Below, one piece after another: positions 8,625 through 36,905 of a stretch of DNA of 64,000 nucleotides. The DNA lies in NCBI GenBank assembly GCA_020348885.1, contig CP070755.1, forward strand, positions 1,630,689-1,694,688, read 5' to 3'. The notes beneath the pieces are model-generated. The model was not told where the DNA came from, did not search any database, and was given only the letters and a program-made list of their open reading frames with translations. The DNA comes from Candidatus Coatesbacteria bacterium. GTDB lineage: Bacteria; RBG-13-66-14; B26-G2; WVWN01; G020348885. Both the position numbers and the translations under genes were made by a program. Within the stretch, counting starts at the first letter, position 1. Every line of letters begins with the position of its first letter.

Positions 8625-8764
8625 CGCCGTCCTCAAACGCGTTTTGAGCCGTAAGAAGAACGTAGTCCACTATATCCGGTACCCGATTAAATATTATAAA
8701 CAAGCGGTTAAGGGAATAACAACTTAATATAACGTTAATAAAAAAAGGTTTGACGGAGAAGAAG

Positions 8765-9169: not shown

Positions 9170-9209
9170 CGCTTTTTTATCAAGAATTCAAGGTTGACAG
9201 GGAGTACCG

Positions 9210-15179: not shown

Positions 15180-15517
15180 ATCCAGGTACTAGATTCTTTG
15201 CGGTCCAGCAAAGCCTCTTCTAACGAAGGAGTTTCGACTGGTACGTACGCTCAACTTACGGTATTCTAATCTCGCCGTCGCCGCATTTCAACGACAAACG
15301 GCCACCGTACGGTCGAAGTAAAACGGCGGCGGATTCGAGAATCCGGGACATCCGCCTTGCCCGGAGGCTAATACTATGTTATACGACTATACTCATATAC
15401 CTATGAAACCGCTAAAAAAAGCCGTAGAAATTGCCGACGCACTGTGCCGTAGCGAGCGACCGAGCCGTTCTTTACGTTATTAAACGGTACTCTTAGTTTA
15501 GTACACCCGGCGCTAAC

Positions 15518-17690: not shown

Positions 17691-18158
17691 ATGGCTACGT
17701 TTACTGAAACCGCGAAAAAACTCAAAGCCGAACTCGCCGAAACGATCATCGAAATATCCGACGGGAATAAAATACCGTACGTAAAAATTGACGCAACCGC
17801 CGCACACGACGCCGCCACGGCCCTCTACGGCGCCGGTTACGACTCCCTCCTGTACATCACGGCCAAAGACTACCCCGACGACGGCGAACTCGAGCTGGTC
17901 TGGCACTATTTTTCCTACCCGACGAACGAGGAGTTCTTCGTCAAGGCACGGGTACCGCGGTCAGGCGCCCACGTACCGACTATCTCCGATATATACGCCC
18001 ACGCCGAGTGGCAGGAGGACGAGGTCTACGAGATGTTCGGCGTGGCCTTCGAAGGGCACCCGAACCCGAGGCGCCTCCTCACGCCCGAGTGGCTCGAGGG
18101 ACACCCCTTACTTAAAGATTACGAAAACCCCGATTTGGAGAAGATACCCAATCAATAA
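17691..18158 (+). CDS. nuoC: NADH-quinone oxidoreductase subunit C (30 kDa)
   Basis: NuoC motifs (…DYPDDGELELVWHYFS…EWQEDEVYEMFGVAFEGHPNPRRLL). Separate from nuoD, not fused. Confidence 0.88.
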   Translation: MATFTETAKKLKAELAETIIEISDGNKIPYVKIDATAAHDAATALYGAGYDSLLYITAKDYPDDGELELVWHYFSYPTNEEFFVKARVPRSGAHVPTISDIYAHAEWQEDEVYEMFGVAFEGHPNPRRLLTPEWLEGHPLLKDYENPDLEKIPNQ

Positions 18159-18256
18159 CGATGCGTCGTATGCGCTGTACGCGGATTGGATCCGCTGCTA
18201 CTAGGAATTACTTATTGACTAAATAGAAATAACCGGAAGTTTTTAGGAGCGACCCG

Positions 18257-19378
18257 ATGTCCACCGAAACTCGCGAGCTGAGGACCGAAGAGTTCAAGGT
18301 CAACATAGGCCCCCAGCACCCCAGCACCCACGGCGTCTTCCGAATGGTCAACACGATGGACGGCGAGCGCATCGTCGCCTGTGAACCCCACATCGGCTTC
18401 CTCCACCGCTCGATGGAGAAGATGGCCGAGAACCGCCAGTACATCTCCTACCTCATGATGACCGACCGAATCGACTACCTGAGCGGCCTCTTCTGCAACG
18501 AGGCCCACTGCAGAGCCATCGAGGAGTTATACGAACTGGAAGTTACCAAACGCGCTCAGTACATCCGCGTGATGCTGATGGAACTCAACCGCATCGCCAG
18601 CCACTCGATCTTCTGGGGCATCTTCGCCCTGGACCTGGGCGCCATCACCCCGTTCCTCTGGGCCTTCCGCGAGCGCGAGGTCGTGATGGACTTGCTCGAG
18701 ATGACCACCGGCCAGCGGATAACGTTCAGCTACTTTCGGCCCGGCGGCGTCGCCGAGGACCTTCCGGTGGAAGACTTCTTGCGACGGGCCAAGTTCTTCG
18801 TAAAAGACTTCCCGTACCGGGTCGCCGACTACCACCGCCTGCTAGATAAAAACGAGATATTCGTTCACCGGACCAAAGGCGTAGGCGTAATCCCGGCCGA
18901 CATGGCCGTAAACTACGGTCTGACCGGACCGAATCTGCGGTGCTCGGGCGTAGACTTCGACCTGCGTAAAGACCGGCCGTACGAATGTTACGAGGACTTC
19001 GATTTCGACGTGATTACGTACGAAGAAGGCGACTGCTACGCCCGCTATATGGCCCGTATTTACGAGATGGAAGAGTCGTACCGGATATTCAAGCAGGCCC
19101 TCGAGGGACTGCCCGAGGGCGACGTCAAGTCGCCGGATACGCCGAAGAAGATAAAACCGCCGGCCGGCGAGGTTTACGTCCGGGTCGAGTCGCCCCGCGG
19201 CGACTACGGCCTTTATATGGAAAGCGACGGGTCCGACAAACCTTACCGTTACAAGCTCCGGACGCCGTCGTTCAGCAATTTGTGCATCCTCCCGAAGCTG
19301 CTCGAGAACGCGTACCTGGCCGACATGGTCCCCATCTTTGGGTCGTTGGACGTAATACTCCCCGACGTGGACCGCTAA
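18257..19378 (+). CDS. nuoD: NADH-quinone oxidoreductase subunit D (49 kDa)
   Basis: NIGPQHPSTHGVFRMV…, ending in a conserved C-terminus. Confidence 0.92.
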   Translation: MSTETRELRTEEFKVNIGPQHPSTHGVFRMVNTMDGERIVACEPHIGFLHRSMEKMAENRQYISYLMMTDRIDYLSGLFCNEAHCRAIEELYELEVTKRAQYIRVMLMELNRIASHSIFWGIFALDLGAITPFLWAFREREVVMDLLEMTTGQRITFSYFRPGGVAEDLPVEDFLRRAKFFVKDFPYRVADYHRLLDKNEIFVHRTKGVGVIPADMAVNYGLTGPNLRCSGVDFDLRKDRPYECYEDFDFDVITYEEGDCYARYMARIYEMEESYRIFKQALEGLPEGDVKSPDTPKKIKPPAGEVYVRVESPRGDYGLYMESDGSDKPYRYKLRTPSFSNLCILPKLLENAYLADMVPIFGSLDVILPDVDR

Positions 19379-19384
19379 TATAAT

Positions 19385-19546
19385 ATGGTATCGAAGGAGA
19401 AAAACGAAAACGAAGAACTAAAGCCGGAGTACGACCGTCGGGGTCTTAAGCCGATATACCTTCTATTCGGCGTCCTGATCGCGATAATCGCCGGCATAAT
19501 CGGGTTCTTCGTAGCCCTCTTCGGCAGGAGCAGGCGGTACTTCTAG
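19385..19546 (+). CDS. Small single-TM protein (53 aa) inserted between nuoD and nuoH
   Basis: Unlisted ORF MVSKEKNENEELKPEYDRRGLKPIYLLFGVLIAIIAGIIGFFVALFGRSRRYF. The start is 6 nt after the nuoD stop; no clear SD. Confidence 0.35.
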   Translation: MVSKEKNENEELKPEYDRRGLKPIYLLFGVLIAIIAGIIGFFVALFGRSRRYF

Positions 19547-19595
19547 CGGTACTTAAACGCGAACGGAACGCTGTAGGCATCGAAGGACGTTACAT

Positions 19596-20627
19596 ATGCA
19601 CGCGCTCTTCGGCTGGTTGAACGAAAAGTGGACCGCCCTAATCGAGTGGCTCGGTCTCCCGGACTTCATCGTACCCGCCGGACAGATGGTCTTCGACGGA
19701 ATATGCGTCGCCGGGTTCATCGCCGTACTGGTACTCTTCCTGATATGGCTGGAGCGTAAAATCTCCGGCCACGCCCAGGACCGGTTCGGGCCGATGCGGG
19801 TCGGCTGGCACGGCTGCATCCAGACCGTCGCCGACGCTATAAAGCTAATCCAGAAGGAGGACATAGTCCCCGCCCGGGCCGACCGCTGGGTATATAACGT
19901 CGCGCCGTTTGTAGCCTTCGCGCCCACGGTCATCGCCTTCGTCGTCATACCCTTCGGCGACGGCGTCATCGTCAAGGACCTGAACATCGGTATTCTCTAT
20001 CTCTTCGCGATAACCAGCTTTGCCGTAATCGCGATTGTAATGGGCGGCTGGGCTTCCAACAACAAGTACGCGCTCTTGGGCGCTTTCCGGTCCGCGGCCC
20101 AACTCGTCAGCTACGAAGTACCGCTGGTACTCTCGGTCCTGGGCGTCTTGATGCTCGCCGGGACGATGCGGATGGGCGGAATCGTTGAAGCTCAGAGCTC
20201 TATGTGGTTCATCGTTTATCAGCCGCTGGGGTTCCTGATATACTTCGTCGCCGCGACGGCCGAGGTCAACCGTACGCCCTTCGACATCCCTGAGGCGGAA
20301 CAGGAGCTCGTGGCCGGGTTCAACGTCGAATACTCCGGAATGAAGTTCGCGATGTTCTTTCTGGCCGAGTTCGCGAACATGTTTCTGGTTGCTGCGATCG
20401 CGACGACGCTCTTCCTCGGCGGCTGGAAGGGACCTTTTCAGCCGTATATTCCCGGCGAGGTTTGGTTCCTCGTCAAGGCCCTGGGCCTTACGGCGCTCAT
20501 CCAGGTCTTCCGGTGGACGTACCCGCGGCTCCGCGTGGACCAACTAATGAGCTTCGCGTGGAAGCTGCTTTTGCCGTTAGCGTTTTTGAACATAATCGTC
20601 ACAGGGTTGATACTCGTACTGCGATAA
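19596..20627 (+). CDS. nuoH: NADH-quinone oxidoreductase subunit H
   Basis: 343 aa polytopic protein with NuoH/ND1 motifs (…DRFGPMRVGWHG…EQELVAGFNVEYSGMKFAMFFLAEF…). Confidence 0.92.
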   Translation: MHALFGWLNEKWTALIEWLGLPDFIVPAGQMVFDGICVAGFIAVLVLFLIWLERKISGHAQDRFGPMRVGWHGCIQTVADAIKLIQKEDIVPARADRWVYNVAPFVAFAPTVIAFVVIPFGDGVIVKDLNIGILYLFAITSFAVIAIVMGGWASNNKYALLGAFRSAAQLVSYEVPLVLSVLGVLMLAGTMRMGGIVEAQSSMWFIVYQPLGFLIYFVAATAEVNRTPFDIPEAEQELVAGFNVEYSGMKFAMFFLAEFANMFLVAAIATTLFLGGWKGPFQPYIPGEVWFLVKALGLTALIQVFRWTYPRLRVDQLMSFAWKLLLPLAFLNIIVTGLILVLR

Positions 20628-20639
20628 AAAGGAGGAACC

Positions 20640-20774
20640 ATGATGGACTTCTACGGACCTGGGATGTGGAGCGGCGTTTTAGTATCGTTCCTCACGAGCT
20701 GCCTCGCGATAGGTTTACCCGTCGCCATCGCGATTATCATCGGCGCGATAATCGTCCGCGGCGGAAAGAAATAA
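20640..20774 (+). CDS. Tiny membrane protein (44 aa), paralogue 1 of a tandem pair
   Basis: Unlisted ORF MMDFYGPGMWSGVLVSFLTSCLAIGLPVAIAIIIGAIIVRGGKK. Strong RBS AAGGAGG 7 nt upstream. Confidence 0.6.
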   Translation: MMDFYGPGMWSGVLVSFLTSCLAIGLPVAIAIIIGAIIVRGGKK

Positions 20775-20783
20775 ACGGCCGGC

Positions 20784-20921
20784 ATGGACGCGTTCGGCAT
20801 ACTCGACTACCCGGGCTACTGGACCGACATGTTCATACGGGCCATCGTATCGTGCGTTACCGTCGGCCTGCCGGTGGCCCTGGCCATTCTGGTAGCGGCG
20901 CATATTATCAAAAAGAAGTAG
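20784..20921 (+). CDS. Tiny membrane protein (45 aa), paralogue 2 of a tandem pair
   Basis: Unlisted ORF MDAFGILDYPGYWTDMFIRAIVSCVTVGLPVALAILVAAHIIKKK. Shares the S-C-x3-GLPVA-x-AI…II-K(K) core with the preceding ORF. Confidence 0.5.
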   Translation: MDAFGILDYPGYWTDMFIRAIVSCVTVGLPVALAILVAAHIIKKK

Positions 20922-21014
20922 GGCCGTATCTTTGGGCGCGGCCGCTTAGGAAGAAAGCGCGCGGGTAGCAGCATCTTTGTTAGTCGCAGAAAATGCGGAA
21001 CTGGGAAAACGCCG

Positions 21015-21419
21015 GTGAAATGGTCCCTGATTTTCGTATTCTGGCTCGCGATGGCCGTACTCATATCAGCAGACGGGTTCGTCGGTTACTTCGTAGTAAT
21101 GCCCAAGTTCGGCGAATACGTGAACCACGTCTATAAATCGGCAGTAGCGGTGGGGATTACGGCATTGTTCTCGTGGGTATACGCTATTATTTCCAAGGGG
21201 GAAGGTTGGCTGACGTACGCCGTTGCTTGCGGCGTAATCTGGGTAATTATAACCACCTGCTTCGAGTTCGTAGCCGGCCATTACCTTTTTGGAAACCCGT
21301 GGCCCGCTTTGTTTAACGATTACAGGATTTGGGCCGGTCGGCTGTGGGTCCCGGTGCTTTTAACCTCGCTCGCCGGGCCGGCGTTAATGGGACATTTCGT
21401 TAATTTAAAGGGTAAATAA
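21015..21419 (+). CDS. Hypothetical 4-TM membrane protein (GTG start) inside the nuo operon
   Basis: 134 aa, hydrophobic. No recognised family. Confidence 0.5.
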   Translation: MKWSLIFVFWLAMAVLISADGFVGYFVVMPKFGEYVNHVYKSAVAVGITALFSWVYAIISKGEGWLTYAVACGVIWVIITTCFEFVAGHYLFGNPWPALFNDYRIWAGRLWVPVLLTSLAGPALMGHFVNLKGK

Positions 21420-21433
21420 CGGGAGCGTTCGTA

Positions 21434-21895
21434 GTGTTAAGAGGGCTCTGGCGAATAATAGCGGGAACCTGGTGGCTCGTCGTCGGATTGATCGTCGTGT
21501 TCAAGCACCTGTTCTTCCGCCGCGCGATAACCATCCAATTCCCGAAAGAGCGCATGGTGATGTGGCCCCGGTTCCGCGGCCGCGTCGGGATGGTCCCCGG
21601 GGACAACGGCGCGAAGCATAAGTGCACCGGCTGCGGCCAGTGCGTCCGGGCTTGTCCCGCCGCATGCATCTTCCTGGACACTCATAAGGAAGAAGGCGTC
21701 AAAGGTCTTATCGTGGACCGGTACGCCATCGACCTCGGGCTTTGTATCTACTGCGCCCTCTGCGTCGAGATATGCCCCTTCGGCGCCCTACGGACCGTAA
21801 CCGACTACGAGATTTCCGTCTTCGATAAAGGCGAACTAATGTGGGAGATGGACGGACTGCTGGAGCCGCGGCGCGCGCCCAGGTTCAAGCGCTGA
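21434..21895 (+). CDS. nuoI: NADH-quinone oxidoreductase subunit I (2x[4Fe-4S] ferredoxin), with an N-terminal TM extension
   Basis: CTGCGQCVRACP and CIYCALCVEICP cluster motifs. GTG start. Confidence 0.9.
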   Translation: MLRGLWRIIAGTWWLVVGLIVVFKHLFFRRAITIQFPKERMVMWPRFRGRVGMVPGDNGAKHKCTGCGQCVRACPAACIFLDTHKEEGVKGLIVDRYAIDLGLCIYCALCVEICPFGALRTVTDYEISVFDKGELMWEMDGLLEPRRAPRFKR

Positions 21896-21919
21896 GCCGG
21901 CGGCGCCGGGAGGATATGT

Positions 21920-22426
21920 ATGGGTGGATGGATTTATACTATAGCTTTCTACGTTTGCGCGGCGCTCCTGGTCGCGTCAGCGTTAGGCGTGCTTCTGCTG
22001 CGTAACCTGTTCCACGCCGGCCTGAGCCTTATCGCGGCGCTCTTCACGATGGCGGCGCTCTTTATCCTGCTTGGCGCCGAGTTCGTCGCCGGCATCCAGG
22101 TGTTGATATACGTGGGCGCCATCGCCGTGTTGATTCTCTTCGCCGTGATGCTGACTCAACGCATCGCCGAAGAGAAGGTCAAGCGATACACGCGGGCGCT
22201 CTTGCCCGGGTTGGCCGTCGCGCTGGCGCTCGTGATCGTAATGATACTGGTTACGACAGGACTCACCGGATATGGGTTCACCCCGTTCGCGACCGAGGAC
22301 ACGGTCGGCGACATCGGCAAAGCCCTGCTCTCGACCTACGTCCTTCCCCTCGAGGTGATTTCGCTCCTATTGCTGGGGGCGTTGGTGGGCGCCATCGTCC
22401 TTGCCCGCAAAGAGGAGGAAAAATGA
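21920..22426 (+). CDS. nuoJ: NADH-quinone oxidoreductase subunit J
   Basis: NuoJ/ND6-like TM protein, 168 aa. Confidence 0.85.
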   Translation: MGGWIYTIAFYVCAALLVASALGVLLLRNLFHAGLSLIAALFTMAALFILLGAEFVAGIQVLIYVGAIAVLILFAVMLTQRIAEEKVKRYTRALLPGLAVALALVIVMILVTTGLTGYGFTPFATEDTVGDIGKALLSTYVLPLEVISLLLLGALVGAIVLARKEEEK

Positions 22427-22734
22427 CGATCACGCCCGCGCACTTCATCGGCCTGGCGTTTATTATATTCGCGATCGGGTTCCTGGTCGTCGTCGTCCGC
22501 AAGAACGCGATCGCGATATTGATGGGCGTGGAGCTGATGCTCAACGCCGTGAACCTGATATTGTTGGCGTTTAACCGGATCCACGGCACGATGGAGCTGG
22601 ACGGCCAGGTCTTCGCGATCTTCGTCATCGCCGTCGCGGCGGCCGAGGCGGTCGTCGGTCTGGCGCTGATACTCGCGGTCTACCGCAGCCTGGGGACCGT
22701 CAGCATAGATGATTTAAGCGCGTTGAAAGGGTAG
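22423..22734 (+). CDS. nuoK: NADH-quinone oxidoreductase subunit K
   Basis: 103 aa; GVELMLNAVNLILLAF motif. Its start overlaps the nuoJ stop. Confidence 0.9.
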   Translation: MTITPAHFIGLAFIIFAIGFLVVVVRKNAIAILMGVELMLNAVNLILLAFNRIHGTMELDGQVFAIFVIAVAAAEAVVGLALILAVYRSLGTVSIDDLSALKG

Positions 22735-22736
22735 TT

Positions 22737-23210
22737 ATGAAACCGTTCGCAATAACGCTCTTTTTGATCGGCATCTCGGCGGCAACAGCGGCCAACGAAG
22801 CGGGTTGGGACGTGGAACGCTGGGGCGTTCACTTTACGATACTATTCAACGATGAGCACGACGAATACGATAATTGCTCGGTCTGGCGCGGCAATGACGT
22901 TGAGTACTATCTGATGAAATTCGATACGCCCGACCCGGAGTTCGCCCGCGAGGTCCATATGAAGTCGGCGTCGCTAGCAGAAGACGCGATACTTTCCGAA
23001 AGGGAAGTGGACGAGGAAACGGAACGTTCGGGTTTCGTCGCCGGTTTAGAGACGGAATACGCGTACGATGACGGGGAGTATAGAGAGACGGCACGTTACC
23101 TGAGCGACGGAGAAACGTGCTTCGCCCTGATATTCTCATGCCCGGTCGACGGTTGGGACGACAACGAGTTCTACCGCGACGACTTCTTTACGTCGGTGAG
23201 TAAGTACTAG
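22737..23210 (+). CDS. Secreted hypothetical protein (signal peptide), first of three tandem operon-embedded secreted proteins
   Basis: Start 2 nt after the nuoK stop. Signal peptide MKPFAITLFLIGISAATAAN. Acidic body. Confidence 0.55.
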   Translation: MKPFAITLFLIGISAATAANEAGWDVERWGVHFTILFNDEHDEYDNCSVWRGNDVEYYLMKFDTPDPEFAREVHMKSASLAEDAILSEREVDEETERSGFVAGLETEYAYDDGEYRETARYLSDGETCFALIFSCPVDGWDDNEFYRDDFFTSVSKY

Positions 23211-23738
23211 GTGATGAAGGTAATTACGACGTTCTTCCTCCTGACAGCGACAGCAGCGACGGCGGGGCTCGCGGGAGTTGATTTCGTACGTTACGACGAC
23301 GCCGCCGGCGCGTTCTCTATATCGCTACCGTCAGGTTATACGTTATCCAAAAGCGGCGCTTACCCTCGGTACTTCAGCTGGGCCGACGATAATATAGGAC
23401 TAACGTTCGTCTCGGTGAACTGGGCCGACGGCGCACCGCTAACGGCCGACGAGGTTAAGGAAGCATACGAGAGTTATTTAGGAGTCGAGTCCGACCTAAA
23501 CTCGCGGGAGACGATTGTACCCGACGACCTGCTTCCCGTGTACGGCGCCGACGACGGACTCCGGGGACGTTACTACATCACGGACGGCGCCGAAGAAACG
23601 TGCTACCGGGTTTCTTTCTTGGACCGGCGTGACCGGGTTTACACGTTTATAATCGCCGTACCGGCGGCGACAGAAGAAGAAACGTTGGACGTCATCGAAA
23701 CCGTACAGAACTCGGTAATCTTACTAGAGGGAGACTGA
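23211..23738 (+). CDS. Secreted hypothetical protein, second of the triplet
   Basis: Signal peptide. Weak similarity to the next ORF (VRYDDAAGAFSISLPSGYTL versus VTVSDDAGFTVELPEGFEI). Start abuts the previous stop. Confidence 0.55.
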   Translation: MMKVITTFFLLTATAATAGLAGVDFVRYDDAAGAFSISLPSGYTLSKSGAYPRYFSWADDNIGLTFVSVNWADGAPLTADEVKEAYESYLGVESDLNSRETIVPDDLLPVYGADDGLRGRYYITDGAEETCYRVSFLDRRDRVYTFIIAVPAATEEETLDVIETVQNSVILLEGD

Positions 23739-23740
23739 CC

Positions 23741-24289
23741 GTGAGAACGATATTCTTTTTAACCGCACTGGGGCTGGCCGCTTTCGCGCCCGCCGCCGCG
23801 ATTTCATACGTAACCGTTTCCGACGACGCCGGTTTTACGGTAGAATTACCCGAAGGCTTCGAAATCGCTTCCGAAGTAGCCGAAGACCCCGTAATCCGGG
23901 AATTAACCGAAGGTAAACCGTCGGTCGTTTCCACGTACGTATGGGAAGGCTCCGAGCTCGAAGGTATGGGCTTCGCCGTCGTACGTATCGGCGGCGGCGG
24001 GGTAGCGCCTGATAAAATGGAATCCTTCGTTCACGAGCGCCTTAACGCCGAAATGATGCCCTATAAGGTAACCGACCTGGGACTCACCCACGCCAGGATA
24101 ACCGAAATAGGGGCCGACTCGGGTAACAGCGTCCAGTACACGGCCGAGATCGAAGAAATGGTTTTGAAGGTGAACGTATACTACTTGCAGAAAGGTAACG
24201 CCAGCTATTTGGTTATTATCGGCTGGCCTTTAGACGCCGGGTTCGCCGGCGCCGGTCAGCACATAGAAAAAACGTTCAAGTTGGAGTGA
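23741..24289 (+). CDS. Secreted hypothetical protein, third of the triplet
   Basis: GTG start 2 nt after the previous stop. Signal peptide MRTIFFLTALGLAAFAPAAA. Confidence 0.55.
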   Translation: MRTIFFLTALGLAAFAPAAAISYVTVSDDAGFTVELPEGFEIASEVAEDPVIRELTEGKPSVVSTYVWEGSELEGMGFAVVRIGGGGVAPDKMESFVHERLNAEMMPYKVTDLGLTHARITEIGADSGNSVQYTAEIEEMVLKVNVYYLQKGNASYLVIIGWPLDAGFAGAGQHIEKTFKLE

Positions 24290-24335
24290 TATTTCTCCGG
24301 TCATCTAACCGGTTTAATACGGAGACTTCGACGAT

Positions 24336-26273
24336 ATGTCTATAATCCCGATTCTCGCCGTAATAGTCCAATTCGCGCCGCTGGTGGGTTTCGCCGTCGC
24401 CCTCTTCTGGGGCAAACGGATGGGCGAGCCGCGAGCCAGCTTTGTTCCCGTCGCGATGATGGGCGTAAGCGCCCTCGCGAGCATCCCGTTATTGGCCGGC
24501 GTCCTGTCCGGCCACGGCGGGCTCTTTACCGTCGAGTGGATAAACTCCGGTGCGATAAGTATAAACATCGGCTATATGCTGGACAACTACAGCGCCGTAA
24601 TGACGGCAACCGTCGCGATCGTCGCGTTCCTCATCCATCTCTACTCGATAGGCTACATGCATGGTGACCCGAGGTTCGGCCGGTTCTTCGCGTACCTGAA
24701 CCTCTTCGCGTTCTCGATGCTGGGGCTGGTGACGGCTTCGAACTTTATGCAACTCTTTATCTTCTGGGAGTTGGTCGGCCTCTGCTCGTACCTTCTTATC
24801 GGCTTCTGGTACGAGAAGAAATCGGCGTCCGACGCCGGCATCAAAGCCTTCATCACCACGCGAACCGGCGACGTCGGGTTTATGCTCGGGATATTCCTCC
24901 TCTTCGCTCTGACCGGCTCGATGGACTACGACAAGATATTCCACGCCGTCGAGGGTGGCGCCATCGGCCCGACGTTGATTACGGCGGCGGCGCTCCTCCT
25001 CTTCTGCGGCGCGATAGGGAAATCGGCCCAGATACCGCTGCAGGTGTGGCTCCCGGACGCGATGGAAGGCCCGACTCCCGTCAGCGCCCTCATCCACGCC
25101 GCGACTATGGTCTGCGCCGGCGTGTATATGATCGCACGGGTATTCCCCATCTTCGAAGCGGCGCCTACGGCGCTCTTCGTCGTCGCCATCGTCGGCGGGA
25201 CCACAGCGCTCCTCGCCGCGACCATAGCGTTGGTACAGATTGACATCAAGCGGGTGCTGGCGTACTCGACGGTCAGCCAACTTGGGTATATGATACTGGC
25301 CCTTGGGGTCGGCAACCCGGTGGCGGCCTTTTTCCACCTGGTTACCCACGCGTTCTTCAAGTCGCTCCTATTTCTCGGGTCCGGCTCGATGATACACGGG
25401 ACAGGCACCCAAGACATCCGGGAGATGGGCGGTCTGGCACCCAAGATGAAGACGACGACGTGGACGTTCGTTGTCGGGGCGCTGGCGCTGGCAGGCGTAC
25501 CGCCTTTGGCCGGTTTCTTCTCCAAGGACGAAATCTTGGGCTCCGTCAGCGACTACGGCCACTGGTGGCTAATAGTCTGCGGCTTTCTGACGGCTCTCTT
25601 GACGGCCTTCTACATGTTTCGGGCTATATATATCTCCTACGCCGGGAAACCGCGGACGGCGGGCGCCGAGCACGCACACGAGTCACCGCCGGTTATGACG
25701 ATACCGCTGATCGTCCTCGCCGTATTCTCGGTCACGGCCGGGTGGATATTCTTCGTCCCCGGCGGCTTCGGCGCGTTCTCGGGCTTGAGCGTTTTCCTTC
25801 ACCACGAGCACGGGATTAACGTGGGGGCGATGGGCGCGTCGGTAATTCTGGCCCTCTCAGGTATCTTCATCGCGACGATAATCTACCTCTGGAAGTGGGT
25901 GGACAACGAGCAGCTCTACAAGATATTTCGGCCCGTCGCTTTCGTGCTCGAACGCAAGTACTTCTTTGACGACGTTTACCACGGTTTGCTCGTCCCCGGG
26001 TTCGTCCTCTTCAGCCGCTTCTGGGGCGCGTTCGACCTGTGGGTAATAGACGGCATCGTCAATCTGTCGGCTTTCATGACGGTCCTGGTCAGCCGCTTCG
26101 AAGGTTGGTTCGACCTGGCAATAGTGGACGGGGTTGTTAACCTACTCGGCTGGATTACCAGAACGTTCGGCGCCGGGTTCCGTAAACTTCAGACTGGGTA
26201 CGTACAGGAGTACATAATCATCCTGGGCGTCGGCGCCGTCGCCGTGATACTGGCGGCACTTGCGATATTGTAA
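24336..26273 (+). CDS. nuoL: NADH-quinone oxidoreductase subunit L
   Basis: 645 aa with antiporter-like subunit motifs (…WLPDAMEGPTPVSALIHAATMV…). Confidence 0.92.
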   Translation: MSIIPILAVIVQFAPLVGFAVALFWGKRMGEPRASFVPVAMMGVSALASIPLLAGVLSGHGGLFTVEWINSGAISINIGYMLDNYSAVMTATVAIVAFLIHLYSIGYMHGDPRFGRFFAYLNLFAFSMLGLVTASNFMQLFIFWELVGLCSYLLIGFWYEKKSASDAGIKAFITTRTGDVGFMLGIFLLFALTGSMDYDKIFHAVEGGAIGPTLITAAALLLFCGAIGKSAQIPLQVWLPDAMEGPTPVSALIHAATMVCAGVYMIARVFPIFEAAPTALFVVAIVGGTTALLAATIALVQIDIKRVLAYSTVSQLGYMILALGVGNPVAAFFHLVTHAFFKSLLFLGSGSMIHGTGTQDIREMGGLAPKMKTTTWTFVVGALALAGVPPLAGFFSKDEILGSVSDYGHWWLIVCGFLTALLTAFYMFRAIYISYAGKPRTAGAEHAHESPPVMTIPLIVLAVFSVTAGWIFFVPGGFGAFSGLSVFLHHEHGINVGAMGASVILALSGIFIATIIYLWKWVDNEQLYKIFRPVAFVLERKYFFDDVYHGLLVPGFVLFSRFWGAFDLWVIDGIVNLSAFMTVLVSRFEGWFDLAIVDGVVNLLGWITRTFGAGFRKLQTGYVQEYIIILGVGAVAVILAALAIL

Positions 26274-26304
26274 GTAAAGCCGTTAAAATAGGAGGTTGGT
26301 TACA

Positions 26305-27906
26305 ATGAAAACGCGATTAGTTTTAATCTTTTCGATAGCTTTATTAGCGCTTTCCGGCGTTTTCATAGGTTGTGACAACAACGTTACGGGGCCTGACGAC
26401 GGCGATGGGGATGGTAACGGCGACGGGGACGAAGAAAAACCGGAATTATCGAACCCGAATCCACCAGACGGCGCAACGGGCGTAGATTTCCTTTTGGATT
26501 CCGTAAGTTGGGAATGTACGAACCCCACCGGTGCCAACCTTACGTTCGACGTCTACTTCGGCGAATCGGGTTCGCCCCTAGACTTAATAGCTAACGATAT
26601 ACCTGATACAAAATGCCCAATAGGACCGCTAGAAGAGAAAACCGGTTATCAATGGCAAGTTACCGTAGATTACGGAGAAGGTCTAACCGAATGGGGTCCC
26701 GAATGGGAGTTCGAAACAGCAGAGTCACCTGGTTGGCATATAGAAATAGTCGATTATATCGGTGAGTTTTATCCTTTCTACGACATTTCACTTACTATAG
26801 ATAGCGGAGATAATCTGTATATGAGTTATTATTCTATGGGAGACCATGGTTTAAAATACGCATACACGAGTGGGCGAGGTTGGACGACCGAAATCGTCGA
26901 TACGGATGGTTATATGCCCGGTCAAGGTTCTTCTATTGAACTAGATATTAACGGCGACCCGCATATAAGCTATGTAACCGCCCTGGATCTATCCGGACAA
27001 GAAATCAGGTGCGCCCGTAAAACGGGGCTAACGTGGTCAATTGATAATATCGCAAGCGGCTATTTATGGGGTACTTCCCTCGTTTTAGACGGTTCGTCTA
27101 ACGAACATATTACATATTACGAAGAGGGAGGTGGGAATCCTAGAATATTTTACACTTACAAAAGCGGTTCCGGGTGGATTAGAAAAGAGGTATATGCAGG
27201 TATCTCCCACAACTCGCGTAAATCGATAGGGTTTAATAAGGACGGTAAACCCGTTATTTGTTTCAACCCCTTTAATGACATAGACTACGACTTAAGGTTT
27301 GCTACTTGGAACGGTTCAAGTTGGGATATCGAAGTGATAGATAGCGGTACTTATCATATATCCTGGCAAGCCGAGATGGTCATCGACGCCCAAAAGAACC
27401 CTCATATCGTATATAACGACGGTTTAAGTTATCCCGAACATCTGATGAAGTACGCGCGTAGAAATGGGTCTTCGTGGATAATAGAAAATATAGAAGTAGA
27501 TAGGTGGGAAGCTAGGCCTTGGGTTTGCGATTTATACCTCGATGGTACTGGCAAACCACATATAACCTATACAACCCGCGAATACGTTTCAGGTAATTAC
27601 CGATACGAATTAAAATACGGTTATTTCGACGGCACGTCTTGGTCCAATGAACTAGTCGAAGAAGCGGAAGTAGGTTCGAATAGATTAGTATTGGACGCTC
27701 AAGGATACCCCCATATCTTATATTTCGATGAAAACACTTATGAGTTGAAACACGCTTATTACATACCGGAAAGCCGTTTTGATACGTCGGCGCTGCGAAT
27801 AAAAGCCGTACCTCATACGAAACAAAAAGACGATAAAACGAAAGCGAAATTAAAAGAAGGGGAACGGAAGAAAGGTAAAGATTTAGCGTCGGGTATCGTC
27901 GAATAA
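26305..27906 (+). CDS. Lipoprotein with an N-terminal FN3-like domain and a ~9-10-unit tandem-repeat (beta-propeller-like) region, inserted between nuoL and nuoM
   Basis: Lipobox LSGVFIGC, GGAGG RBS. Repeats of ~45 aa share the pattern [DN]G.PHI.Y…LKYA…G.SW..E.V. Confidence 0.6.
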   Translation: MKTRLVLIFSIALLALSGVFIGCDNNVTGPDDGDGDGNGDGDEEKPELSNPNPPDGATGVDFLLDSVSWECTNPTGANLTFDVYFGESGSPLDLIANDIPDTKCPIGPLEEKTGYQWQVTVDYGEGLTEWGPEWEFETAESPGWHIEIVDYIGEFYPFYDISLTIDSGDNLYMSYYSMGDHGLKYAYTSGRGWTTEIVDTDGYMPGQGSSIELDINGDPHISYVTALDLSGQEIRCARKTGLTWSIDNIASGYLWGTSLVLDGSSNEHITYYEEGGGNPRIFYTYKSGSGWIRKEVYAGISHNSRKSIGFNKDGKPVICFNPFNDIDYDLRFATWNGSSWDIEVIDSGTYHISWQAEMVIDAQKNPHIVYNDGLSYPEHLMKYARRNGSSWIIENIEVDRWEARPWVCDLYLDGTGKPHITYTTREYVSGNYRYELKYGYFDGTSWSNELVEEAEVGSNRLVLDAQGYPHILYFDENTYELKHAYYIPESRFDTSALRIKAVPHTKQKDDKTKAKLKEGERKKGKDLASGIVE

Positions 27907-27980
27907 ACGTATTACCGCCGGAGGGTCACCCGGGCAGCGTTAACGTTAGTTTTAACCTGACGGACGATCAGTATCAATAC

Positions 27981-28577
27981 ATGAAAGAAGCCTCATATAT
28001 CATCGTTATCTCGGCGGTTTGTTGGGCCTTATCGGCGACAGCTTATACCAACGACGCCGTCATCTCGCCGAACCCGGCGGCCCGGGCCTACTTCTGGGAG
28101 GGCATCGACGCGCTGGCCGATGGCGACGAGATTGGCGCGAAAGACCGGTTCGAGCTTGCAGTCGGCGCAGACGAAAAATGTGTACTCGCGTACGCGCTCC
28201 TCAGCCAACTCGCGTACGCCGCGGGCGACGAAGAGCTGTCCCGCGAGTACTACGACAGGATGTCGGAAGAACCGCCGGAGCTGGAGGTACTATACGCGTG
28301 GGCCGTCGAACCGACGGCGGAAGGCGATTGGGACGAGGCGGCGGCCCGGGCCCGCGAATTCGTCGAACAGTACCCGCAGACTCTCCGGGCTATCGCGATA
28401 CTCCATCTTCTCGGCCGCGCCCAGTACTACATGGGCGAGCGAGACGAAGCCTGGGAGACCCTCAACTATGCCTTTATGATGAGCGACCTGGTACCCGGAA
28501 CGGTACCGGCCTACGAAAACGAAGACGAGTACGAAACCATATCGGCGTTCGTTTCGGGCGATTCGAACGTCGAATAA
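27981..28577 (+). CDS. Secreted alpha-helical (TPR-like) hypothetical protein
   Basis: Signal peptide. Acidic, helical repeats (…LAYAAGDEELSREYYDRM…). Confidence 0.45.
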   Translation: MKEASYIIVISAVCWALSATAYTNDAVISPNPAARAYFWEGIDALADGDEIGAKDRFELAVGADEKCVLAYALLSQLAYAAGDEELSREYYDRMSEEPPELEVLYAWAVEPTAEGDWDEAAARAREFVEQYPQTLRAIAILHLLGRAQYYMGERDEAWETLNYAFMMSDLVPGTVPAYENEDEYETISAFVSGDSNVE

Positions 28578-28635
28578 CCGATACAGACTTCGATTATAAA
28601 GATTTGGGGACGTAACCCCTCTAGGAGGAACATCG

Positions 28636-30114
28636 ATGGACTTCCCGATTCTCACCGTAACGACATTCGCGCCCATAGTCGGGATGATTATAATCCTATT
28701 AATGCCCCGCAAACTCGAGAACCTGATAAGGGGAACCGGGGTCTTCTTCTGCGGCGTCTCGCTCGTATTATCATTGGCGATGCTCTTCATCTATAAGGCG
28801 GACATGGCCGGTATAATGCAGATGGAAGAGCAGTACCGGTGGATTCCCACCATCGCCGTCAGCTACCACGTGGGCGTCGACGGGCTGTCGTTCCCGCTCT
28901 ACATTCTAACGACGGTCCTCTCGTTCCTCGCGGCGATAGCCTCGTTCTCGGTCAAGGAGCGGGTCAAGGAATACTACGCCCTCTACCTCCTCCTGGTAAC
29001 GGGGATGTTGGGCGTCTTTATCGCCCTCGACCTCTTCCTCTTCTACGTCTTCTGGGAAGTTATGCTGGTACCGATGTACTTCCTCATCGGCATCTGGGGG
29101 GGAGAACGACGCGAATACGCGGCCATCAAGTTCTTCCTCTACACCCTTCTGGGCAGCGTAGTAATGCTCCTTGGGATTCTCGCACTTTTCTTCACGTCGA
29201 CGCCCCACACCTTCGATATGATGGCCCTGATGGCCCAGAACGGAAACTTCGTCCACGGGTTCCAGATAATCGTGTTCATGGCTTTCTTCATCGGATTCGC
29301 GATAAAGGTACCCGTCTTCCCGTTCCACACGTGGCTTCCCGACGCCCACGTGGAAGCGCCGACGGCTATCTCGGTCCTCCTCGCCGGGATACTCCTTAAA
29401 ATGGGCGCTTACGGGCTCCTACGGGTAAGTTACCCTATACTGCCCGAAGGGGCCGTCTGGTTCGCCGTGCCGCTTGCGGTCTTGGGGATAATAAACATAG
29501 TTTACGGGGCGCTCGTCGCGATGGCCCAGAAGGACCTCAAGAAGCTCATCGCGTACTCGTCGGTGAGCCACATGGGGTTCGTACTCCTCGGAGCGGCGGC
29601 GATGACGGCCACGGGTTTCAACGGCGCGATGATGCAGATGCTCGCCCACGGGATAATCACCGGCGGGCTCTTCCTCATGGTGGGCGTCCTCTACGACAGG
29701 ACCCACGACCGTATGATCGAGCACTACGGCGGGCTGGCCAACAAGGTCCCGATATTCGTCGGCGTCTTCTCGGTCACGATGTTCGCGTCGCTGGGTCTGC
29801 CGGGTATGGCCGGGTTCGTGGGCGAGTTCCTCAGTTTCGCCGGGACGTTCCCGGTATACAAATGGGCCGTAATCGCGGCGGCGCCGGGCGTGGTCATAAC
29901 TGCGGGTTACTTCCTCTGGACTATCCAACGAATGTTCCTGGGCGAGTTCAATACCCAGTGGGAAGGGCTTACGGATATGAGCGCCCGCGAGCTCGTAACG
30001 ATGGTCCCCCTAATCGTATTGATGATCACGTTCGGCGTATGGCCGCGGCTGTTAATCGACCTGATGAACCCGGCTATGGCTAAACTGGCCGAGTTCATGG
30101 CCACGTTCCGTTAA
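28636..30114 (+). CDS. nuoM: NADH-quinone oxidoreductase subunit M
   Basis: 492 aa with an NuoM/ND4 motif (…FHTWLPDAHVEAPTAISVLLAGILLKMGAYG…). Confidence 0.92.
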   Translation: MDFPILTVTTFAPIVGMIIILLMPRKLENLIRGTGVFFCGVSLVLSLAMLFIYKADMAGIMQMEEQYRWIPTIAVSYHVGVDGLSFPLYILTTVLSFLAAIASFSVKERVKEYYALYLLLVTGMLGVFIALDLFLFYVFWEVMLVPMYFLIGIWGGERREYAAIKFFLYTLLGSVVMLLGILALFFTSTPHTFDMMALMAQNGNFVHGFQIIVFMAFFIGFAIKVPVFPFHTWLPDAHVEAPTAISVLLAGILLKMGAYGLLRVSYPILPEGAVWFAVPLAVLGIINIVYGALVAMAQKDLKKLIAYSSVSHMGFVLLGAAAMTATGFNGAMMQMLAHGIITGGLFLMVGVLYDRTHDRMIEHYGGLANKVPIFVGVFSVTMFASLGLPGMAGFVGEFLSFAGTFPVYKWAVIAAAPGVVITAGYFLWTIQRMFLGEFNTQWEGLTDMSARELVTMVPLIVLMITFGVWPRLLIDLMNPAMAKLAEFMATFR

Positions 30115-30152
30115 CGGTTTCGGACATCAACCCTTACTAAGGGGAACGTTAT

Positions 30153-31652
30153 ATGGTTTACGACTGGATGCACCTGGCGCCTCACATGGTTCTGGCCGGC
30201 GCCGGTATATTCGTAATAACCCTGGACCTGGTTTGGGGGAAGCTCGGACGCGCATTGGCACCCTGGCTCACGATAGCCGCCGCGGCCGCCGCCGGCGCCC
30301 TGGCCCTCCGGGCGTGGGGCCCCGGCGCCGTAAGTTGGGGCGGGGCTCTCGTCGTGGACAGCCTGTACGTGCTATTCGGCCTCGTCTTCTCCGTCGCGCT
30401 GATTCTGGTCACGCTTCTCTCGCTCCGATATTGGCCATTGGACCAGGAAAGAAAGCCCGAGTACTTCGGACTGCTCCTGCTCGTTACCGCCGCTGTTTAC
30501 TTCATGGCTTCGAGCCTCGACCTCATACTAATCTACGTCGCGATCGAGTTCTCGTCGATTCTATCTTACGTGCTTGCCGGATACTTACGCCGTAACCCGG
30601 CGTCGGGCGAAGCCGGGCTCAAGTACTTCCTCTACGGCGCGTCCGCCTCGGCCGTGATGCTTCTCGGATTCGCCCTATTGTACGGGATGACCGGTACCAC
30701 CAACCTGGTCGGGATAAGCGAAGCGCTGCCCGAACTGGGCCGGTCCGCCAGCGACGTGGGGTACATCACCCTCGTCCCCGGCGCCGTGGAAATCCCGGGC
30801 AACTGGGCGCTCTTCCTGGCCGCCGGGTTGGTGCTCGTGGGCCTCGGTTACAAGATAAGCGCCGTGCCGTTTCATATGTGGGCGCCGGACGCGTACAACG
30901 GCGCTCCTACCCCTATCGCGGCGTTCCTTTCGGTCGCGTCCAAAGCCTCGGGTTTCGCCGTCCTCCTCCGGTTCGTCCTAGTCCTCCACCCGAACCTGGA
31001 GTTGGTCGGCGGCGCGTGGACGTCGTACGTATCGGTCCTCGCGGTCCTCAGCATGGTAATCGGTTCGTTAATCGGCATAGTCCAGAACGACATCAGGCGG
31101 CTGCTGGCGTACTCGTCTATCGCCCACGCCGGGTTCATCCTACTCGGCGTAGTCGCCGATACGCGGCTCGGGTACGCGTCGGTTATCATATACCTGGTCA
31201 TCTACGCCTTTATGAACATAGGAGCCTTCGGTCTGGCGAGTATAGTCGGCCACATTACGGGCGGGTACGAGCTGAGCGACTACTCGGGTCTGGGGCGCCG
31301 GCGCCCGATTCTGGCGGCGCTCTTGGCGGTCTTCCTGCTGTCGCTGGCCGGGATACCGCCGCTGGCCGGGTTCTTCGCCAAGTTTTACGTGCTGGCGGCT
31401 ATTATCCAGACCGGCCACTATACCCTCGCCGTCATCGCCATCTTGATGAGCGTGGTCGGGCTCTTCCTTTACGCCCGAGTCCTCAAGGCTATGTACTTCG
31501 ACAGACCCGAAGAAGCGGTGCCCGAGGTCCGGCGCCTGTCCTGGGCAGGCGCCGTCGCAATGGTCCTCTGCTTCGTCGGGACACTTGCGCCCGGCGTCTA
31601 TCCGCAACCGCTCGTGGCCTGGGCGAAAGAAGCCATCGCGTTGATCTTATAA
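30153..31652 (+). CDS. nuoN: NADH-quinone oxidoreductase subunit N
   Basis: 499 aa with an NuoN/ND2 motif (…FHMWAPDAYNGAPTPIAAFLSVASKASGF…). Confidence 0.9.
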   Translation: MVYDWMHLAPHMVLAGAGIFVITLDLVWGKLGRALAPWLTIAAAAAAGALALRAWGPGAVSWGGALVVDSLYVLFGLVFSVALILVTLLSLRYWPLDQERKPEYFGLLLLVTAAVYFMASSLDLILIYVAIEFSSILSYVLAGYLRRNPASGEAGLKYFLYGASASAVMLLGFALLYGMTGTTNLVGISEALPELGRSASDVGYITLVPGAVEIPGNWALFLAAGLVLVGLGYKISAVPFHMWAPDAYNGAPTPIAAFLSVASKASGFAVLLRFVLVLHPNLELVGGAWTSYVSVLAVLSMVIGSLIGIVQNDIRRLLAYSSIAHAGFILLGVVADTRLGYASVIIYLVIYAFMNIGAFGLASIVGHITGGYELSDYSGLGRRRPILAALLAVFLLSLAGIPPLAGFFAKFYVLAAIIQTGHYTLAVIAILMSVVGLFLYARVLKAMYFDRPEEAVPEVRRLSWAGAVAMVLCFVGTLAPGVYPQPLVAWAKEAIALIL

Positions 31653-31683
31653 AAAAAACGCCTTAAACACCGATACGACTAAC

Positions 31684-31710
31684 CGCCCGCGGGAACGGGC
31701 GGTTTAACGC
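31684..31710 (+). terminator. Weak putative terminator after nuoN
   Basis: ccgcccg cgggaa cgggcgg ttt: a GC hairpin with a short T-run. Confidence 0.3.
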
Positions 31711-31804
31711 TATACGCGTGGCCGGGCAAAAGGTTTGATTTAGGCCGGTCGTTTTGCTAAAATTCCTAAAAGACCGAATATCCCCAAAACGGCGTTAAGA
31801 ACGG

Positions 31805-32932: not shown

Positions 32933-32949
32933 TACGGGGCGTTCGTCGG

Positions 32950-35781: not shown

Positions 35782-35786
35782 AAAAG

Positions 35787-36898: not shown

Positions 36899-36905
36899 CC
36901 TCCTA

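Follow-up and report, generated by a model that had tools for sequence, protein, structure and literature searches.

Conserved and variable non-nuo genes within the complex I operon of an uncultured Coatesbacteria bacterium

The operon encoding respiratory complex I in the uncultured Candidatus Coatesbacteria bacterium carries nine non-nuo genes that fall into two classes, conserved and variable, when the 64-kb stretch of DNA studied here (the window) is compared with about 20 related loci (designated by L-numbers). The conserved class comprises i53, the paralogs i44 and i45, i157, i175 and the TPR protein i198; the variable class comprises i134, i182 and i536. We read the nuoC-N unit (Table 1), with roughly even confidence, as a mosaic of nine core genes, a conserved enzyme-linked set and passengers. 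Judging from sequence comparison, the conserved set most likely encodes lineage-specific accessory subunits or assembly factors.

Table 1. Features of the nuoC-N unit and its surroundings, in window coordinates
Feature	Position	Strand	Basis
GT-C-like membrane protein gene	15518..17548	+	PMT_2, 24.3 bits, weak, below Pfam cut-off
nuoC (30-kDa subunit), opening the nuo series	17691..18158	+	Complex1_30kDa, E 1e-31
nuoD (49-kDa subunit)	18257..19378	+	Complex1_49kDa, E 5e-95
i53, 53-aa single-TM protein, candidate supernumerary subunit	19385..19546	+	One hydrophobic segment
nuoH	19596..20627	+	NADHdh, E 1e-123
i44, 44-aa single-TM protein, paralog of i45	20640..20774	+	blastp against i45, 2e-9
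i45, 45-aa single-TM protein, paralog of i44	20784..20921	+	Ortholog group
i134, 134-aa protein with 3-4 TM segments, variable insert	21015..21419	+	Presence/absence in relatives
nuoI	21434..21895	+	Two 4Fe-4S motifs; Fer4, E 3.5e-13
nuoJ	21920..22426	+	Oxidored_q3, E 5e-35
nuoK	22423..22734	+	Oxidored_q2, E 6e-26; 4-bp overlap with nuoJ
i157, predicted secreted 157-aa protein	22737..23210	+	N-terminal signal-like segment (by eye)
i175, predicted secreted PsbP-family protein	23211..23738	+	Ortholog of the single nuoK-nuoL gene of deeper relatives
i182, predicted secreted PsbP-family paralog	23741..24289	+	hhalign against the nuoK-nuoL family, 90.5%, E 1e-6
nuoL	24336..26273	+	Proton_antipo_M/N
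NuoL lateral helix (HL) 26-aa tandem duplication, residues 565-590	26028-26105		
i536, lipoprotein (533/536 aa)	26305..27906	+	Lipobox FIGC, acidic linker
i198, predicted secreted TPR protein, 198 aa	27981..28577	+	Conserved immediately upstream of nuoM
nuoM, sole copy	28636..30114	+	Proton_antipo_M, E 8e-83
nuoN	30153..31652	+	Proton_antipo_M
NuoN 17-aa loop insertion before TM7, residues 199-215	30747-30797		
GC-rich 9-bp hairpin 3' of nuoN	31681..31704	+	Fold of 31653-31800
Promoter-like site upstream of an M23 peptidase gene	31735-31763		

The genes nuoC-D-H-I-J-K-L-M-N follow one another in canonical order, and Pfam matches for all nine agree with the identities and places given in the earlier note. 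As that note also had it, nuoE, nuoF and nuoG are absent from the cluster; the Pfam families Complex1_51K and 2Fe-2S_thioredx had no match there. The absence of nuoA and nuoB upstream of nuoC extends to the whole 64-kb window, in which a motif scan and tblastn with the NuoA and NuoB of relatives found neither. They are presumably encoded elsewhere in the genome. The two genes adjoin nuoC on its upstream side in L002, L005 and L007; the flanks 5' of nuoC in L020 and L044 lack them. The pair has already split off in the clade of the window genome. A GT-C-like gene occupies their place. L020, with two tandem copies, and L044 have homologues of it (41-43% identity) 5' of nuoC, and a PMT_2-positive gene of 677 aa takes the same position in L036. 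Neither blastp nor hhalign detected similarity between this upstream gene and the GT-C genes found between nuoD and nuoH in L003 and L005, and a shared origin is not claimed.

The inserted ORFs number nine, as in the earlier note's own list and not ten as in its title. They occupy four junctions: nuoD-nuoH (53 aa, the sole ORF of that interval), nuoH-nuoI (44, 45 and 134 aa), nuoK-nuoL (157, 175 and 182 aa) and nuoL-nuoM (533/536 and 198 aa). The spacing is tight, as had been described, with successive gaps of 6, 49, 12, 9, 93, 14, 2, 0, 2, 46, 22-31, 74 and 58 bp. Pfam and NCBIfam searches with the nine inserts returned only sub-threshold TPR matches. Internal terminators isolating the inserts, a possibility raised earlier, were looked for in the spacers: no terminator-like site occurs on the + strand in any spacer of the nuoC-N unit, none of these spacers has an unusually stable fold, and Rfam found no RNA element. 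The hairpin after nuoN is the only strong one of the unit and likely marks its end. A promoter had been placed before nuoC; a consensus scan found none there, and a TTGCAC-N17-TATATC-like site was seen by eye about 30 nt upstream of the gene. Co-transcription of the unit is plausible from the tight spacers and the lack of an internal terminator, and spacing of 0-2 bp suggests translational coupling.

The closest spacing is that of the nuoK-nuoL genes (gaps of 2, 0 and 2 bp), in line with their description as three coupled genes for secreted proteins, with coupling suggested and export predicted. Direct matches to PsbP (PF01789) or PsbP_2 (PF18933) were not obtained for i157, i175 or i182 (E up to 0.01-0.05), and a PDB sequence search with the nuoK-nuoL family profile gave no match. 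An i175/i182 profile retrieved 37 representatives at E<=1e-3 among 1.84e9, and among the full-length members of this set, 16 of 30 match PsbP (best 3e-10) and 12 of 30 match PsbP_2. Through this transitive sequence link, i175 and i182 belong to the PsbP family. They are joined to each other as paralogs through the family of the deeper relatives, i182 matches a broad PsbP-like alignment (hhalign 99.5%), and both have the alpha-beta-alpha sandwich fold of PsbP. Among structures matched to i175, the chloroplast protein PnsL1 ranks second; LpqN, DcrB, MTC28 and T6SS immunity proteins are matched as well. This PsbP/Mog1 fold is common among bacterial secreted proteins of unrelated function, and a generic PsbP-like relative (P0041) lies away from nuo genes. 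The first protein, i157, is possibly a very divergent PsbP-family paralog, a grading kept at that level because its match to the PsbP-like profile spans only 42 C-terminal columns (hhalign 90%, E 1.6e-6); full-length comparisons gave no significance. Its orthologs are present in 5/5 relatives covering the site. Another predicted secreted protein of the conserved class, i198, has tandem helix-turn-helix TPR repeats. The TPR fold is itself uninformative as to role.

The three micro-proteins around nuoH are highly constrained. The 53-aa protein, whose N-terminal tail is charged and whose C-terminus reads RSRRYF, occurs in 5/5 close relatives covering the site; its last 30 residues are invariant, and its TM helix and C-terminus are unchanged across five lineages. 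Orthologs of i44 and i45 form separate groups, each present in 6/6 close lineages. With L020, a congeneric relative, as reference, dN/dS is 0.08 for i53, 0.16 for i44, 0.06 for i45 and 0.22 for i157. Across all shared inserts it spans 0.06-0.22 at dS of 0.4-1.1, indicating purifying selection. The micro-proteins are missing from the deeper clade (L002-L008), and hence are not required by this enzyme type.

The variable inserts behave differently. The 134-aa protein is found between nuoH and nuoI in the window, L042 and L044/45 and is missing in L020, L035 and L038. Only 5 such proteins were found among 5.8e9, and a homologue with 55% identity lies outside any nuo context. This patchy distribution, together with the occurrence outside nuo, rules out i134 as a conserved subunit. 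Half of the close relatives lack i182, which is present in the window, L020 and L035 and missing in L038 and L042. The lipoprotein i536, with about seven W-x-x-E-x-V-D...P-H-I-x-Y repeats recognized by eye, is a recent foreign insertion and, among the relatives compared, unique to the window genome: it is missing from 5/5 close relatives covering the nuoL-nuoM junction and from the deeper clade, and its GC3 is 0.42 (region GC 0.42-0.45) against about 0.8 in the nuo genes. It has no Pfam, NCBIfam or PDB sequence match, no flanking repeats, no alignable scars relative to L020 and no paralog in the window. A binning artefact at its junctions was ruled out by L054, an independent contig from another assembly that carries the end of nuoL, i536, i198 and the start of nuoM. 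Other cargo occurs in the relatives, including a 302-aa gene (L035) and an Eco57I-like methylase (L001) at the same junctions, the GT-C genes between nuoD and nuoH, a DUF2378-like gene between nuoI and nuoJ, and REP-like repeats at the junctions of L020.

Both explanations offered in the earlier note are partly right, for different genes. A role as accessory subunits or assembly factors fits the conserved subset, with its purifying selection and deep positional conservation; an operon tolerant of insertions fits i536, i134 and i182 and the cargo of the relatives. Absence of the inserts from close relatives, which had been named as an objection to the first explanation, is complete for i536 and partial for i134 and i182, whereas i53, i44/i45 and i157 are kept.

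The strongest competing explanation, to which we assign an appreciable though minority probability, regards all nine inserts as passengers. Junctions of a long, strongly expressed operon would tolerate insertions, and the conserved genes would serve other envelope functions co-expressed with respiration. The unrelated cargo listed above, from i536 to the REP-like repeats, speaks for this explanation, PsbP-like and TPR folds are generic, i134 has a homologue away from nuo, and there is a precedent in the Rhodobacterales, where urf1 lies inside the nuo operon and its product, Urf1, is located in LH1-RC (PMC13066640). Against it, the neighbouring cargo turns over while the same families stay at their junctions. 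A secreted gene homologous to i175/i182 lies between nuoK and nuoL in L002-L007, and L008 has part of such a gene there; TPR orthologs adjoin nuoM on its upstream side in L002-L005, L007 and L008, although NuoL identity to these deeper relatives (L002-L008) is only 58-61%. More distant i175-like proteins are encoded directly 3' of nuoK in two further lineages (L047 and L048). The 0-2 bp spacing, with the coupling it suggests, also argues against passengers, as does the finding that the micro-proteins are more conserved than NuoC.

The antiporter-like subunits differ from their counterparts elsewhere. The HL duplication of NuoL is common to the window, L020, L002, L005 and L008 and missing in E. 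coli and six other lineages. The lineage-specific loop of NuoN, 17-21 aa longer, has the same taxon distribution, and no clade-specific indels were found in NuoM. These core-subunit changes in lineages with the extra genes count for the mosaic reading, but the co-occurrence comes from a single clade and is one evolutionary event, which counts against it. We know of no non-nuo genes in 2M complex I clusters. As Chadwick et al. 2018 is cited in PMC9040806 and PMC6606698, the 2M enzyme has a 26-aa HL insertion in NuoL and, as its defining feature, a second nuoM; its clusters are devoid of the NADH-oxidising module (PMC6606698). The window resembles them in the length and position of the HL insertion and in a cluster without the NADH module, and differs in that neither the operon nor the window contains a second nuoM. 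One possibility is that the PsbP-like and TPR proteins assemble or clamp a four-pump, 2M-like arm, with a second NuoM encoded elsewhere, as nuoA and nuoB, split off in this clade, presumably are. We consider this improbable: only three antiporter-like genes are present in the window, with no second nuoM or fourth such gene, and the operons of relatives also have three; L002, L005 and L007, whose nuoA-N operons are contiguous, likewise show no second nuoM in them; and an extended HL is reported for NuoL of enzymes that have no extra pump (PMC9040806).

Finally, the earlier suggestion that the small ORFs might be untranslated, as chance ORFs of the spacers, is effectively refuted: they are very short and belong to no Pfam or NCBIfam family (searches with little power at 44-53 aa), but they show dN/dS of 0.06-0.16 at dS of 0.44-1.07, their reading frames and TM segments are kept in five or six lineages, an AGGAGG-type ribosome-binding site lies upstream of i44, and independent gene callers predict them, as independent pipelines do the inserts in the contigs of relatives.

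Under the preferred mosaic reading, the conserved set would comprise three single-TM micro-proteins encoded on either side of nuoH, two or three Sec-exported proteins from the nuoK-nuoL junction and an exported TPR protein. Co-transcription and translational coupling with their neighbours would keep the synthesis of these proteins in pace with that of the membrane arm. The micro-proteins may make contact with NuoH and the arm's heel. The PsbP-like and TPR proteins may bind NuoK/L/M/N from the periplasmic side (P-side), where they would form a module for stability or assembly, or act only transiently, as a chaperone. In chloroplast NDH, the convergent equivalent of such a periplasmic module would be the lumenal subcomplex SubL (PnsL1 and partners). 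The genes i134, i536 and in part i182 would be passengers dropped into permissive intergenic junctions. More tentatively, a periplasmic module encoded within the operon and made up of a TPR protein together with two or three members of the PsbP family, with single-TM subunits in the NuoH area and matching changes in HL and NuoN, may have evolved on a NuoEFG-less complex I in Coatesbacteria and related lineages. We know of no bacterial complex I with an extrinsic subunit on the periplasmic side. If true, bacterial complex I would here have its first P-side accessory subcomplex, and the PsbP fold would have been recruited independently and convergently, as in SubL.

Bacterial complex I is usually seen as a bare core of 11-14 subunits, with supernumerary subunits regarded as a mitochondrial or chloroplast elaboration with few bacterial exceptions. 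A phylum-level lineage with genes for predicted exported PsbP-family and TPR proteins and constrained micro-proteins at fixed nuo junctions offers a testable case, which could show how accessory subunits first arise and whether NuoEFG-less enzymes acquired the PsbP fold on their P-side on two occasions. The loci also reveal junctions tolerant of foreign genes, which bears on annotation pipelines, and they bear on how the HL-extended, single-NuoM architecture is read.

The nqo operon of Paracoccus denitrificans also has interspersed urf genes. The Rhodobacter and Paracoccus operons share with the window same-orientation non-nuo frames between complex I structural genes, but they are 14-subunit operons of Alphaproteobacteria with other proteins at other junctions (urf1 lies between nuoE and nuoF), whereas the window operon is NuoEFG-less and encodes predicted exported PsbP-like and TPR proteins and single-TM micro-proteins. 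The urf genes of the Rhodobacter capsulatus nuo operon have been suggested to act in assembly or regulation (PMC13066640). Mycobacterial MSMEG_2064, Thermus Nqo15/16 and cyanobacterial NdhL/P/Q are likewise small or lineage-restricted additions to a conserved core, although Pfam and NCBIfam searches revealed no sequence relationship to the inserts. These subunits are either exposed to the cytoplasm or embedded in the membrane, and NdhP and NdhQ are single-TM micro-proteins. The comparison of i53, i44 and i45 with NdhP/NdhQ/NdhL made in the earlier note stands as an analogy, homology being undetected by Pfam and NCBIfam at lengths of 44-53 aa, where these searches have little power. MSMEG_2064, a nuo-operon gene, has been confirmed by cryo-EM as encoding a complex I subunit (bioRxiv 10.1101/2022.10.04.510895).

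A closer parallel than NdhP/Q/L, and one that the note missed, is chloroplast PnsL1, a member of the PsbP family. In SubL, PnsL1 is PsbP-like, PnsL2/3 are PsbQ-like and PnsL4/5 are immunophilins. SubL is chloroplast-specific, nuclear-encoded and absent from cyanobacteria, and where SubL has PsbQ-like partners the window has a TPR protein. With 12-13% sequence identity between i175 and PnsL1, any likeness of role would be convergent. SubL is lumenal and is thought to stabilise NDH (PMC12170339). The two systems are alike in a NuoEFG-less host enzyme and in one component with the PsbP fold. The chloroplast enzyme carries its extrinsic proteins on the P-side of the membrane arm; for the window proteins a P-side location is predicted from hydrophobic segments at the N-terminus that carry A-x-A-like sites, and signal peptides, like membrane topology, were assigned by eye and hydropathy only.

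The nuo operon of the window is best read as a mosaic of conserved and variable inserted genes. ORF listing and Pfam scans placed nuoC, D, H, I, J, K, L, M and N on one strand, with no nuoE, F or G between nuoD and nuoH, as the earlier note described. Four junctions are interrupted, by nine non-nuo ORFs and not the ten first counted: i53 (inserts are named by length in residues) at nuoD–nuoH, i44, i45 and i134 at nuoH–nuoI, i157, i175 and i182 at nuoK–nuoL, and i536 and i198 at nuoL–nuoM. Exact matches are genes JSW52_08035-08080 of a Candidatus Coatesbacteria MAG. Besides being absent upstream of nuoC, nuoA and nuoB were not found across the full 64-kb window by motif scan or by tblastn with relatives' NuoA and NuoB. 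A gene does precede nuoC, but its proposed GT-C identity had only a sub-threshold Pfam match (PMT_2/GT-C), and the promoter reported there was not recovered by a promoter scan, only a TTGCAC-N17-TATATC-like site being seen by eye. Across this phylum, GT-C/PMT_2-like membrane glycosyltransferase genes recur beside or within the nuo operon: one copy lies 5' of nuoC in the window and two in tandem in L020, while loci L003 and L005 carry one at nuoD–nuoH, with no homology detectable between the two groups.

Coordinates of the features in the window and in loci of related genomes
Locus	Feature	Position	Strand
Window	nuoC to nuoN	17691-31652	+
Window	GT-C-like gene 5' of nuoC	15518-17548	
Window	NuoL tandem duplication (residues 565-590)	26028-26105	
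Window	NuoN loop insertion (residues 199-215)	30747-30797	
Window	Syntenic region downstream of nuoN	31805-38276	
L001	799-aa methylase-type gene	248-2647	
L002 (also L003-L007)	DUF2378-like gene	8002-8535	
L002 (also L003-L007)	Gene of about 185 aa	11930-12487	
L003	GT-C gene at nuoD–nuoH	about 803-2380	
L005	GT-C gene at nuoD–nuoH	5401-6969	
L020	Two tandem GT-C-like genes	1622-5696	
L020	Repeats at nuoH–nuoI	8897-9395	
L025	nuoH–nuoJ arrangement	4545-9995	
L035	474-aa gene after nuoN	13789-15213	minus
L044	nuoD in two pieces	2543-3664	

The tight spacing noted earlier holds, with spacers of 0–93 bp (nuoK–i157, 2 bp; i157–i175, 0 bp; i175–i182, 2 bp). A terminator scan of the + strand found no terminator-like site inside any spacer, the earlier note having named internal terminators isolating the inserts as evidence against its reading; no spacer folded more stably than shuffled controls (z −0.4 to +0.6), and an Rfam search gave no match. 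A 9-bp GC hairpin lies 3' of nuoN, directly ahead of a promoter-like site for an M23 peptidase gene. Downstream of nuoN, synteny holds from the close to the deep clade (M23 peptidase, Phos_pyr_kin-family kinase, colicin V production protein, PHP-domain protein, PdxJ, ACPS, CCA/poly(A) polymerase), which supports common ancestry for the whole region. In L035 and L036 only, nuoN is separated from the M23 peptidase gene by an inserted 474-aa gene, which runs in the opposite orientation and has no Pfam match.

The loci compared form a close clade (L020, L035-37, L038, L042 and L044/45; nuo proteins about 83–98% identical) and a deep clade (L002-L008; NuoL 58–61% identical) from MAGs labelled Zixibacteria or Coatesbacteria. 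In the more distant nuo loci (Vicinamibacteria, another 'Coatesbacteria' MAG (L016), L021 and the L024-L033 type), the nuoK–nuoL and nuoL–nuoM junctions are empty of genes. The split nuoD of L044 (288 + 83 aa) is probably a frameshift or assembly error. The deep clade has two conserved non-nuo genes missing from the window, a DUF2378-like cytoplasmic gene at nuoI–nuoJ and a gene between nuoL and the TPR gene, the site of i536 in the window. In a separate lineage (L025, also L024, L026-L029, L032 and L033; NuoJ about 35% identical), the nuoH–nuoJ interval holds genes resembling nuoE and nuoF, along with one for a large GltD-type flavoprotein to which a NuoI-like ferredoxin domain is fused; the electron-input module thus lies mid-operon as an insertion.

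Gene order in the nuo operons (letters, nuo genes; brackets, other genes by length in residues or by type)
Locus	Order
Window	C D [53] H [44][45][134] I J K [157][175][182] L [536][TPR] M N
L020	C D [51] H [42][45] I J K [159][176][183] L [TPR] M N
L035	as L020, plus a 302-aa gene after nuoK
L038	H [44][44] I J K [156][170] L [TPR] M N
L042	C D [53] H [43][44][134] I J K [156][170] L [TPR] M N
L044	C D [53] H [44][44][134] I J K [...]
Deep clade, 5' part	A B C D [GT-C gene, L003/L005] H I [DUF2378-like, about 153-190 aa, L002/3/6/7] J
Deep clade, 3' part	K [secreted, about 200 aa] L [about 185 aa][TPR] M N

By several sequence measures, the shared inserts are real genes. Between the window and L020, dS was 0.4–1.1 with low dN/dS: 0.08 for i53, 0.16 for i44, 0.06 for i45 and 0.20–0.22 for i157, i175, i182 and i198, against 0.02–0.13 for the nuo genes. 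The 30 C-terminal residues of i53 (TM helix and RSRRYF) are invariant across five lineages, i44 and i45 form two distinct ortholog groups, each retained in six lineages, and independent gene callers also called i53, i44, i45, i157, i175, i182 and i198 in relatives.

Profile–profile comparison related the i175 family (97.7%, E 1e-12) and i182 (90.5%, E 1e-6) to the deep-clade nuoK–nuoL gene. The window proteins at this junction had no direct match to Pfam PsbP, and their family profile had none among PDB sequences; searched against 1.84 billion representatives, it found only 37 proteins at E<=1e-3. Because Pfam PsbP is present in 16 of its 30 full-length matches and PsbP_2 in 12, i175 and i182 are classed, by profile, as divergent PsbP-family proteins. 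For i157 the match to this family is confined to the C-terminal 42 columns, and it is possibly a paralog. The genes of two more distant i175-like proteins (P0037 and P0040, 25–26% identical to i175) lie directly 3' of nuoK on their own contigs; no such placement is seen for the gene of P0041, a generic PsbP-like protein. The predicted structure of i198 is a confident all-helical TPR protein (pLDDT 91.5) with generic TPR matches only, and its orthologs (45–53% identity) lie directly 5' of nuoM in the deep-clade loci covering that site (L002-L005, L007 and L008). By eye and hydropathy, i157, i175, i182 and i198 have an N-terminal signal-like hydrophobic segment.

The other inserts behave differently. 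Absent from every relative compared, i536 has a GC3 of 0.42 where the nuo genes have about 0.8, and the GC content around it is 0.42–0.45; it has a lipobox and, by eye, about seven propeller-like repeats, and matched nothing in Pfam, NCBIfam or PDB sequences. Its insertion is real, since an independent short contig (L054) carries the same arrangement from the nuoL end through i536 and i198 to the nuoM start. Patchiness marks i134, present in three of six close lineages, whose only further relatives include one in a setting without nuo genes (HTH regulator, i134-like gene, methyltransferase, BioY), and i182, absent from L038 and L042. Unrelated cargo occupies the same junctions: the 302-aa gene of L035, which is cytoplasmic, the GT-C genes at nuoD–nuoH, REP-like repeats in L020 and an Eco57I/N6-methylase-type gene in L001, on the same strand and 36 bp 5' of a nuoL whose product is 94% identical. 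The junctions are thus demonstrably permissive to insertion. The L001 methylase sits where the window has its PsbP-like genes, on a short contig of 4.6 kb. The L020 repeat (GGGTCGTACCTTTAGGTGCGACCACCTT, 4–5 copies of 24–45 nt filling the intervals that follow the orthologs of i44 and i45, none in the window) looks like a REP/MITE-type element that invaded the nuoH–nuoI junction.

The proposal that the inserts encode accessory subunits or assembly factors thus suits the set kept in relatives, while i536, i134 and i182 fit the insertion tolerance offered as its alternative. In the conserved set are the micro-proteins with one TM segment that flank nuoH, the nuoK–nuoL proteins of the PsbP family and the TPR protein encoded just 5' of nuoM. 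The PsbP-family and TPR proteins would act on the membrane arm from its periplasmic side. The most likely reading, at about even chances, is that this set is dedicated to the enzyme, its members being either supernumerary subunits or assembly factors; the division into conserved and variable inserts is much firmer. Interspersed non-nuo genes are already known from nuo operons, as in the urfs of Rhodobacter and Paracoccus, and so are lineage-specific subunits of bacterial complex I. Hitch-hiking is the main rival: genes within the operon would serve something other than complex I, as is documented for Urf1 of Rhodobacterales, encoded inside the nuo operon and found in LH1-RC (PMC13066640). A precedent for an extra complex I subunit encoded in the operon comes from mycobacteria (bioRxiv 10.1101/2022.10.04.510895).

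Two core subunits are altered in exactly the lineages with the nuoK–nuoL and TPR genes. In NuoL, 26 residues are tandemly duplicated where the lateral helix begins (HL; FDLWVIDGIVNL... then FDLAIVDGVVNL...), and NuoN carries a 17–21-aa insertion in the loop before TM7, a loop that is probably periplasmic if NuoN has its usual N-terminus-out topology; neither change occurs in E. coli or in the six other lineages compared. This distribution reflects one clade and supports co-inheritance with the extra genes, nothing further. According to PMC9040806 and PMC6606698, which cite Chadwick et al. 2018, an HL insertion of 26 aa is the hallmark of 2M complex I and is believed to reach across a fourth pump subunit. 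The window NuoL likewise has an HL insertion of equal length in the same region; however, the 2M enzyme has a second nuoM, whereas a single nuoM is found in the window and in the contiguous operons of its relatives. PMC9040806 also notes an HL-extended NuoL without an extra pump.

Our literature search turned up no account of genes for exported PsbP-family and TPR proteins kept at fixed nuo junctions. If the reading of the conserved set as dedicated to complex I is correct, the PsbP-like and TPR proteins would be a novel and testable case of a bacterial P-side accessory module. Their nearest functional parallel would be SubL, the lumenal, chloroplast-specific subcomplex thought to stabilise chloroplast NDH (PMC12170339), and the module would be convergent with it. 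We consider this case possible, though less likely than not.
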